41,123 nt of DNA, taken from assembly GCA_964525635.1 (NCBI GenBank), contig CAZGJX010000026.1, positions 1-41,123 of the forward strand. Direction: 5' to 3'. This DNA is from an uncultured archaeon (lineage in GTDB: Archaea > Asgardarchaeota > Lokiarchaeia > Sigyniarchaeales > SOKP01). Both the position numbers and the translations under genes were made by a program. The first letter of the stretch is position 1; every line of letters starts with the position of its first letter. This document shows positions 33,670 through 40,646 of this stretch, piece by piece. The notes below the pieces were generated by a model. It was not told the DNA's origin and ran no database searches. It worked only from the letters and a program-made list of their open reading frames with translations.

Positions 33670-34710
33670 ATGAGGTTGATGAAAAAAGAAGTAGATTATA
33701 GATTAACATCACAGGTTAAGCTTCATGGATGATCATGTAAACTAGGTCCAAGTCAATTAAAAAACCTCTTAATGAAAACTGGTTTAACTGATGATATTGA
33801 GGATGCTTCTGTTGTTCCAATAACAGGAACTAATCTATCACTTGTTAAAAATCTCGATATTTTTACACCAATTGTGGATGATCCTGAAATTCAAGGAGAA
33901 ATAGCTGCTTGTAATGTTACAAATGATGTTTTTGCAATGAACGTTCCTGAAATAAATGGGGGAATGCTTGTCTTCTTAGGAATTAAAAATAATATGCCTT
34001 TAAGTATAATTGAAGGAATTCTGCGAGGAATAAAAAATTTCTTAGAACGCAAGATAAATTCAAAAATAGTTGGTGGTCATACAATATTTTGTGGTTGGCC
34101 ATTAATTGGGGGTGAAGCCTCTGGATTTGCAAAAAATGATTGGATTATAAAAAAGAGTGGTGTGAAAAACGGAGATAAGCTAATTTTAACAAAACCAATT
34201 GGATTACAAGGTGTTATGGCGTCATATCGATTATTAAAAGAGATGCCAGAGGTGTTAAATAATTATTCAAAAAGCGAATTGAATAAATCTATTAATACAG
34301 CTATAAAAATCATGACGACTTCAAACCAAAATATAGTGAAAACAATACATTCAATTAAAGATTTTTCTTTCATACATGCTATGTCTGATGTTACTGGATT
34401 TGGTCTTGCTGGACACATAGAAGAAATGCTTCAAAATTCTAAGCTTTCAGCTTTAATCAATAAGATTCCCTCAATTAAGTTTTCAAAAGAATTATCTGCG
34501 GAATTAGGATATGCTTTTGACGAATGTAAATCTCATGAAATTGCAGGTGGTATGTTAATGGCTGTAGATCCTAAATATCTAAATGATTTTACAAATAATC
34601 TTTCAAGTAATAAAATCCCAAATTGGACTATTGGTGAAATAGAAAAAAGAGATCCCAAATTAGTTAGGATTTCAGAAAACGTTAAACACATCGAAATAAA
34701 TGATTTTTAA
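33670..34710 (+). CDS. selD: Selenophosphate synthetase, selenoprotein (Sec at UGA 33730-33732)
   Basis: The in-frame extension MRLMKKEVDYRLTSQVKLHG-U-SCKLGP joins ORF 33772. DIFTPIVDDP, GGHT, LTKPIG and DVTGFGLAGH motifs. Start is ATG 33670 or 33679. Confidence 0.95.
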
Positions 34711-34711
34711 T

Positions 34712-34783
34712 TGATGTCGATGATATAAGCTTAAACGCGTTAAGCGAGTGCTTATTGAGAATTGCACCTGCAAGGTGTCATCA
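34712..34783 (+). ncRNA. Eukaryote-type SECIS element in the selD 3' UTR
   Basis: AUGA(U) 34720-34724 / UGAG 34756-34759 core; helix AUAAGC/GCUUAU; apical AAA plus mini-stem CGC/GCG; lower helix UGAUG/CAUCA. Confidence 0.85.
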
Positions 34784-34885: not shown

Positions 34886-35701
34886 TCATTTTATTTGTCC
34901 ACCTAAATCTAATATAATGTGTTTTAATTTATTTAATACTACATCTACTTTTTCGTGGCAATTGGGATTATCAAAGCAAGTTATAGAAAGTTCTATTTCA
35001 ATTGATGGTCCACTTTTTGGATGGGTTTTTATCCAAAGATTAGGATAATTATCTTTTAATTCATTTATTAATGGTGCTATTTGAGATTCTCCAATCTCTG
35101 TAAAAATAAACCCTTTTTGAATAAAGATACGTTTATTTTCTTTTAATAAAGGTAAAATTGAATTTTTAAACATAGCTTTCATTTCTGTGGGGACTCCTGG
35201 TAAAATAAATATATTTGTATTTTTCTCTTTAATTAAAACTCCTGGTGCAGTTCCTATATTATTAGTTAGAGGTATTGATCCTTGAGGTAAAAAAGCCATT
35301 TTTTCTCTAGCTTTGGTCATTCCTTTTAGTTTTAATCTTCCAATCTTATTTAGTTTATTATAACTCTCCTCTATTGATCTATATGCTTGATTATTTAAAA
35401 TGAGTTCTTTCCCTAATCCTATGGCAATTCCATTATTCGTCATATCATCAAAAGTTGGACCCAAGACTTTAAGAACCTTTATTCCTTAAATTAATCCGCC
35501 CGATGAAATGATTATTTCTGGTTTCCTTTTTAAAATTTCTCTAATTACATTCCCAATTTCTCCTAAATTGTCTCCGATTGTAGTAATCCTTCTAACTTTA
35601 TGTCCATATTTAGATATTTTTCTTGCCATCCAATTTGAATTTGTATCTTGAGTGTGTCCAAGAAGTATCTCATTTCCAATTATAAGAAGTTCTATATCCA
35701 T
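34886..35701 (-). CDS. CinA N-terminal-like / molybdopterin-binding-fold protein (COG1058 nucleotide pyrophosphatase family), two exons: 35701-35492 and 35461-34886 (261 aa spliced)
   Basis: IGNEILLGHTQDTNSNW, GD, SGGL|GPTFDDMT, GTAPG and LPGVPTEM motifs. The two track ORFs are in one frame and are joined by removing 30 nt. Confidence 0.9.
35462..35491 (-). other. Candidate 30-nt bulge-helix-bulge mRNA intron
   Basis: AUUUAAGGAAUAAAGGUUCUUAAAGUCUUG with an in-frame UAA. Outer helix GGGC/GUCC, central helix GGAU/GUCU, bulges UA^A and UG^G, inner helix UUUAAG/CUUAAA. Confidence 0.85.
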
Positions 35702-35905
35702 AAAAATCGAAAATCATCTATATAATTTAATTATTCTGATAATTAGATTTAAAATATAAATAATAATATACCGAAAATAAAAAAAGAGGTTATATATTTT
35801 AGATTTATAAAATTATAAAAAAAAATGATTTTTATTGTTTATTTACTAAGATTTGAAATATCTTGATTTATTTCTATAAATAATAATTAAATAAATATTA
35901 TAAAA

Positions 35906-40542: not shown

Positions 40543-40646
40543 GGGGACTTGGCGCAGCCCGGTAGCGCGATAGCCTCCAGAGTTATAATTAAGAGAATTT
40601 TTCTCTTAATGAGGAATGGTCGAGGGTTCAATTCCCTCAGTCCCCA
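40543..40646 (+). tRNA. tRNA-Trp(CCA) with a 30-nt insertion at the start of the variable region
   Basis: Acceptor stem GGGGACT/AGTCCCC-A; D stem GCGC/GCGC; anticodon stem ATAGC/GTTAT with loop CT-CCA-GA; T arm GAGGG-TTCAATT-CCCTC. There are 35 nt between the anticodon and T arms instead of about 5. Confidence 0.9.

Follow-up and report, generated by a model that had tools for sequence, protein, structure and literature searches.

A candidate bulge-helix-bulge intron in the cinA mRNA of a Lokiarchaeial genome and its putative link to free-standing nucleases

The intron of the cbf5 pre-mRNA is reportedly the subject of work by Watanabe in 2002 and by Yoshinari in 2006. In Crenarchaeota this bulge-helix-bulge (BHB) intron is 16-44 bp long, lacks an open reading frame (ORF), lies in a catalytic motif, shows patchy gain and loss, and often leads to mis-annotation; predicted introns in further protein genes are mentioned in the same paper (Yokobori 2009; PMC2738675). 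Here we analyse contig CAZGJX010000026.1 (assembly GCA_964525635.1) of an uncultured archaeon of the Lokiarchaeia, a stretch of 41,123 nucleotides that we call the window, in which a cinA gene (COG1058) on the minus strand is interrupted by a 30-nt insert. We consider it highly probable that this insert is a BHB intron, which would be spliced from the cinA mRNA by the splicing endonuclease EndA and by RtcB.

Like the cbf5 intron, the insert in cinA is short (29-30 nt in the alleles described below), ORF-less, located in coding sequence within a catalytic motif, patchily distributed and a source of mis-annotation. In contrast to cbf5, the host gene belongs to COG1058 and to Promethearchaeota/Lokiarchaeia, at least five genes in one genome are affected, there is a link to a nuclease, and splicing is inferred. 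A 2020 paper names cbf5 as the sole other mRNA case besides the intron in the 5' untranslated region (UTR) of Haloferax HVO_1309 (PMC7714728). The Haloferax intron resembles the cinA insert in making an mRNA the substrate of the splicing endonuclease, but it is not situated in coding sequence and leaves the reading frame unbroken (PMC7714728). Among the papers covered by our search, cbf5 alone is a confirmed case of a BHB intron in an archaeal coding sequence. No Asgard mRNA introns were encountered in a literature search that took in few subscription papers, and the first-pass annotation of the window, made from its letters alone, likewise knew of no report for this gene family.

Asgard tRNA genes have gained introns repeatedly at BHB-compatible sites, in lineages with a two-subunit EndA; none of these introns has been demonstrated to be spliced in an Asgard cell, and no general route of arrival was found (bioRxiv 10.64898/2026.10.13.758758). 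That study concerns tRNA genes only (the term 'mRNA' is not in its text), and the cinA data offer a candidate arrival route. A further parallel is the collaborative homing of phages, in which a free-standing homing endonuclease is encoded beside an intron (PMC10448857). At cinA, too, a free-standing nuclease gene can lie next to the intron-bearing gene, and both appear to be acquired together. In contrast to the phage systems, the locus is on an archaeal chromosome, the nuclease is of the LAGLIDADG type, its cut site is a predicted one, and the intron is a 30-nt BHB element, presumably enzyme-spliced, instead of a self-splicing group I intron.

The insert in cinA and its fold

The host gene encodes a stand-alone COG1058 protein (the N-terminal part of CinA), probably an ADP-ribose/dinucleotide pyrophosphatase. 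The motifs GxEx3G and GGL/IGPx3D are signatures of COG1058, which in archaea exists as a stand-alone protein (PMC3680494). Both are present in the predicted spliced protein, and the insert splits the latter. An intact cinA ortholog matches Ta0487/3kbq (2e-31), and its best NCBIfam match, NF002291, scores 264.6, below its cut-off of 293. The source genome has a single PF00994 match, which is the split cinA.

The second codon of the insert is an in-frame TAA. When the insert is removed, a 261-aa ORF is obtained that reads SSGGLGPTFDD, restoring the COG1058 signature at the GGL-GPT boundary. Both the position of the insert within GGLGPTxDD and the intact 261-aa product of the two BHB cuts had been proposed in the first-pass annotation, and the reconstruction bears this out. 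The two halves of the gene are contiguous in the profiles, in NF002291 (Table 1) as well as in PF00994 (positions 2-66 and 66-143). Public gene calls split cinA into 71 aa and 185-192 aa, as had been foreseen, and the labels of its homologs (Promethearchaeota or Lokiarchaeota) agree with the assignment to an Asgard-type archaeon. An assembly artefact, in which the insert would be absent from other data, is excluded because four further assemblies (L098-L101), which may share one sampling campaign, contain both the gene and its insert without a single difference (100% identity). The insert-bearing gene is also 100% identical in one Logan contig, possibly from the source sample; a contig from 2021 has only 13 nt in common with the insert and was for that reason not counted.

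The insert and its flanks can be drawn as a complete BHB motif (Table 1). The outer and central helices and both bulges agree with the first drawing, in which the inner helix was given as 6 bp; it measures 8 bp. Four of four central pairs together with at least eight inner pairs occurred at the site in 26 of 1,000,000 shuffles of the insert, and the BHB geometry is not due to chance. No group I or II ribozyme core (some hundred bases) is present in the insert, and its length of 30 nt and the lack of an Rfam match at this place rule out a self-splicing intron of either group.

Genes for both splicing enzymes are present in the source genome: two PF01974 genes, one for an EndA alpha subunit that carries the Tyr/His/Lys motif and one for a beta paralog, and a single PF01139 gene for RtcB. 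In the mechanism that we propose, the cinA pre-mRNA would fold into a BHB that is half exon and half intron, the two-subunit splicing endonuclease would cut each bulge 3' of its second base, and ligation of the exons by RtcB would restore the active-site motif GGLGPTxDD.

Same-site inserts in relatives and alternative explanations

A cinA gene is present in 338 of 400 genomes of the phylum, mostly uninterrupted. Inserts occupy the same codon boundary in 18 distinct alleles; nine of these inserts measure 29 nt and nine 30 nt, and 17 different sequences are represented. They are carried by nine GTDB genomes from four genera (all four genomes of the source genus and five in three others) and by metagenome contigs, and the BHB cuts restore GGL-GPT in every one of the 18 alleles. 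A scan of metagenome junctions with a gap of 0-30 nt returned seven intron-bearing loci and one distant intron-less locus. Over the 18 alleles, 88.8% of the cells are paired, a value that none of 500 shuffles reached and that slid controls approached to at most 62%, and two-sided changes are seen in six of the eight inner pairs; for the central helix, 90% of the cells are paired. Comparison of orthologs, suggested at first pass, has in this way yielded same-site inserts with covarying hairpins. On the exon side, all positions needed for the outer helix can pair in 14 of 15 intron alleles versus 5 of 48 intron-less ones, and the Leu codon is YTA in 15/15 versus 10/48, a contrast that is inflated by kinship and hitch-hiking and is therefore to be taken as support, not as a probability.

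The protein appears to be maintained. Pairs of intron-bearing alleles have dN/dS values of 0.07-0.25 (dS up to 1.7), low in exon 1 and exon 2 alike, consistent with purifying selection in both and with the earlier impression that the exons are undecayed. The residues GPT[FY]DD are conserved in 18/18 alleles; 17 of these have no in-frame start upstream of the motif, which in three alleles immediately follows a stop codon. The intron itself is distributed in a patchy manner: at least eight changes are needed on the protein tree, four of them forced by strong branches, and intron-bearing and intron-less sisters adjoin, although this is a quick version of the tree on which gain and loss are not separable. 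One ortholog (L027, genome G014) is broken elsewhere, after about residue 122-130, and has no insert at GGL-GPT.

Several observations weigh against a spliced BHB intron. The fold is thermodynamically weak (z-score -0.58), and the minimum-energy structure, in which the central helix is open, is more stable than the BHB form by 0.4 kcal/mol; taken alone, fold energy is uninformative. Seven of the 18 alleles have a G-A mismatch as their outermost central pair, so that an EndA of relaxed specificity would be needed. Only one-sided changes are found in the central and outer helices, because the protein fixes their 5' halves. Finally, dN/dS in the source genus (0.16-0.25) is somewhat higher than in intron-less pairs (0.07-0.15). 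A search of public assemblies for the spliced product gave no full-length protein near-identical to the source cinA; one candidate, P0133 (265 aa), clusters with the split forms, and was rejected since it stems from a DNA contig of an intron-less sister strain, 85-89% identical.

Of the other explanations, the one that survives best is an addition to splicing rather than an alternative to it, namely that the intron is kept as a regulator of expression in the manner of HAC1/XBP1. The first-pass annotation had drawn this analogy; it holds for the chemistry (an endonuclease plus RtcB), whereas nothing points to regulated splicing. Unspliced mRNA would be non-productive, and the Haloferax 5' UTR intron is known to affect expression (PMC7714728), but most orthologs lack the intron, close sisters differ in it as seen on the protein tree, its loop sequence is free, and it is tied to a selfish nuclease (see below). 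We regard a regulatory role as unlikely. As its spread is patchy and nuclease-linked, a tolerated parasitic insert fits better than regulation, and the intron is probably a tolerated passenger.

Translational recoding, either by readthrough of the stop or by ribosome hopping in the style of T4 gene 60, might be suspected from the source insert, which is 30 nt long, has a single TAA followed by a hairpin, and ends in the codon TTG for Leu, like the take-off codon TTA. Readthrough is contradicted by the nine 29-nt alleles, half of the total and three congeners among them, since these shift the frame; it would also place 10 residues within the active-site loop. The T4 gene 60 bypass needs matched take-off and landing codons. 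Hopping in cinA fails because the last insert triplet encodes Leu in only 1 of the 18 alleles, and the others offer no matched landing codon. Recoding also leaves the exact 3-4-3 geometry unexplained, and we consider it very improbable.

A split gene, whose 71-aa and 185-192-aa chains are made separately and then assembled, receives some support from the gene callers, which predict both ORFs, and from a TTG just before GPT at which exon 2 of the source gene can start. Only one allele of the 18 has such a start. All others have their first start after GPTxDD, yet these residues are invariant and the Asp region of the motif is a family signature (PMC3680494). A two-chain enzyme thus fails because GPT[FY]DD is kept in the 17 alleles without a start ahead of it, and its probability is smaller still. 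Least credible of all is that a 30-nt insertion has turned cinA into a pseudogene. The gene is probably dispensable, given its absence from part of the phylum, and dN/dS is slightly raised in the source genus, but each of the 18 alleles has its sole break at this site as far as the contigs cover the gene, dN/dS remains low at high dS, and the hairpin covaries. Taken together, the frame shifts, the lone landing codon, the missing starts and the selection on the protein are explained as a whole only by removal at the RNA level. The core proposal of the first-pass annotation, a BHB intron spliced by EndA and RtcB, is thereby supported by comparative tests, with splicing itself a deduction from sequence.

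Association with a free-standing LAGLIDADG nuclease

A free-standing LAGLIDADG gene with two motifs lies head-to-head with cinA in four alleles (L088, L089, L092 and L095), all intron-bearing. In five contigs retrieved via homologs of the nuclease, cinA carries the intron in 5/5. Overall, the nuclease gene adjoins cinA in 7 of 17 intron alleles versus 1 of 55 intron-less ones, an association that is inflated because three of the seven positive alleles were found through the nuclease; the unbiased counts are 4/14 versus 0/54.

Pairs of sister alleles show a mosaic. Between the intron-bearing L089 and its intron-less sister L055, 60 of 207 bases differ in exon 1 and 12 of 150 in exon 2; between L095 and L094 the values are 64/207 and 8/150. 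No more than about three codons separate the switch from the junction, and no such contrast is seen in control pairs (one control pair, L020/L059, was misaligned and left out). In these two pairs exon 1 is foreign as far as the intron, in the manner of a co-conversion tract linking the nuclease gene with the intron. For L088/L018 the support for a foreign exon 1 is weaker. Around the intron L097 matches L095, and its nuclease gene lacks residues 51-326.

These data are consistent with a scheme in which the upstream free-standing nuclease would cut an intron-less cinA at the insertion site or close to it, repair would copy the nuclease gene, exon 1 and the intron as one block, and the nuclease gene would decay later. 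We regard spread across the family by such collaborative homing as likely.

In addition to the inflated association, two sets of observations count against homing. In L112 (G190:C50) the nuclease lies beside an intron-less cinA, and a second cinA is found on C128; in L112 itself, a stretch of divergent sequence covers the latter half of exon 1 and suggests a later replacement. Moreover, the source locus and nine other intron alleles have no nuclease gene. In the 204-nt spacer of the source locus neither a nuclease gene nor a remnant was detected, the nearest homolog in the genome (C4, ~40%) being located elsewhere, and exon 1 and exon 2 share the same nearest relative. Together this argues that the source intron is old and, judging from these comparisons, inherited vertically within the source genus; its arrival by homing would be a past event, suggested by its relatives. 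The homing-endonuclease link is not visible within the window and was overlooked at first pass. A search of viral contigs for the nuclease gave one distant match (33%), and no viral carrier was shown. Of the 135 genomes searched, 74 have members of the wider LAGLIDADG family (L113-L141), frequently with more than one copy and some of them decayed.

Further split genes and other features

A scan of the source genome for split ORFs, as envisaged in the first-pass annotation, revealed four more inserts of 30-32 nt with the same BHB layout, each within a conserved motif (Table 1). The scan required long open frames on both sides and was noisy (1605 raw candidates); as the candidates were chosen by motif and then checked with Pfam, the five split genes, cinA included, are a lower bound. 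In Pfam profiles the halves are consecutive in three of the four additional genes, and exon 1 of the aldolase falls outside the model. The second hit of the covariance model (C50, E 3.7e-4) was rejected, as it lies antisense within an uninterrupted ORF of a repeat protein.

With at least five protein genes broken by introns, routine splicing of mRNA by EndA and RtcB is implied in the lineage nearest to eukaryotes, in which RtcB-type ligation also serves XBP1 splicing. Asgard annotations would then hide intact genes as fragments, a small GTPase among them. For intron gain, the problem that the preprint on Asgard tRNA introns singles out, the cinA locus provides a directly testable route: the nuclease is named and its target predicted, recombination breakpoints are mapped, and one copy of the nuclease gene has decayed. 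We lean, with some reserve, towards the general view that Lokiarchaea routinely splice mRNA with their tRNA machinery, and that introns of about 30 nt in active-site codons are spread by free-standing LAGLIDADG nucleases that use the intron as target protection and later decay. If this is true, the closest prokaryotic relatives of eukaryotes would possess an intron system that is both mobile and enzyme-spliced, and cinA would be a well-resolved example of it.

Table 1. Features of the cinA locus (window positions) and further inserts in the source genome (G000, contig positions).
Feature	Position	Strand	Description
cinA/COG1058 exon 1	35492..35701	-	70 codons; GxEx3G motif; 3' end GGL (GGA TTA); NF002291 positions 7-72
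BHB intron (predicted), 30 nt	35462..35491	-	1 nt + 23-nt hairpin + 4-nt central strand + 2 nt; in-frame TAA
cinA/COG1058 exon 2	34886..35461	-	191 codons + stop; begins GPTFDD (GGT CCA); NF002291 positions 73-260
Whole BHB motif	35455..35503	-	outer and central helices, two bulges, inner helix
Outer helix GGGC/GUCC, 4 bp	35501-35498 with 35460-35457	-	
Central helix GGAU/GUCU	35497-35494 with 35467-35464	-	4/4 pairs, two G-U
Bulges UAA, UGG	35493-35491, 35463-35461	-	
Inner helix, 8 bp	35490-35483 with 35475-35468	-	
Spacer, 204 nt, cinA to divergent upstream gene	35702..35905		site of free-standing LAGLIDADG gene in relatives
Divergent upstream neighbour, 188 aa	35906..36472	+	conserved; locus marker in most relatives; context, outside intron
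Thioredoxin insert (L147)	C1:45712-45743	-	between WCGPC and K
Elf1 insert (L148)	C4:58629-58658	+	between CPQ and CG
DeoC/LacD aldolase insert (L149)	C3:4428-4457	+	between DHG and Y
Ras-family GTPase insert (L150)	C27:33768-33797	+	between WDI and AGQ

The upstream neighbour has a DDSGTGD motif and no Pfam match, and lies beside cinA in most of the family. A tRNA with anticodon CCA (Trp) at 40543-40646 (+) of the window, miscalled as Leu by ARAGORN, has a hairpin insert of about 30 nt in its variable region. The layout of this insert is like that of the mRNA introns and its end like that of the Elf1 insert; a canonical central helix could not be drawn. Elsewhere in the source genome, 22 tRNA genes form an array on one contig and six form a cluster on another; they are mostly intron-less and may represent a mobile element or contamination.

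Selenoprotein SelD is known for Lokiarchaeia. In the window, the frame of SelD (33772-34710, +, with about 45 nt upstream) continues upstream through a TGA (HG*SCK), so that a selenoprotein is probable here as well, and a SECIS-like hairpin (AUGA...AA...GA) is located in its 3' UTR, near 34720-34760.
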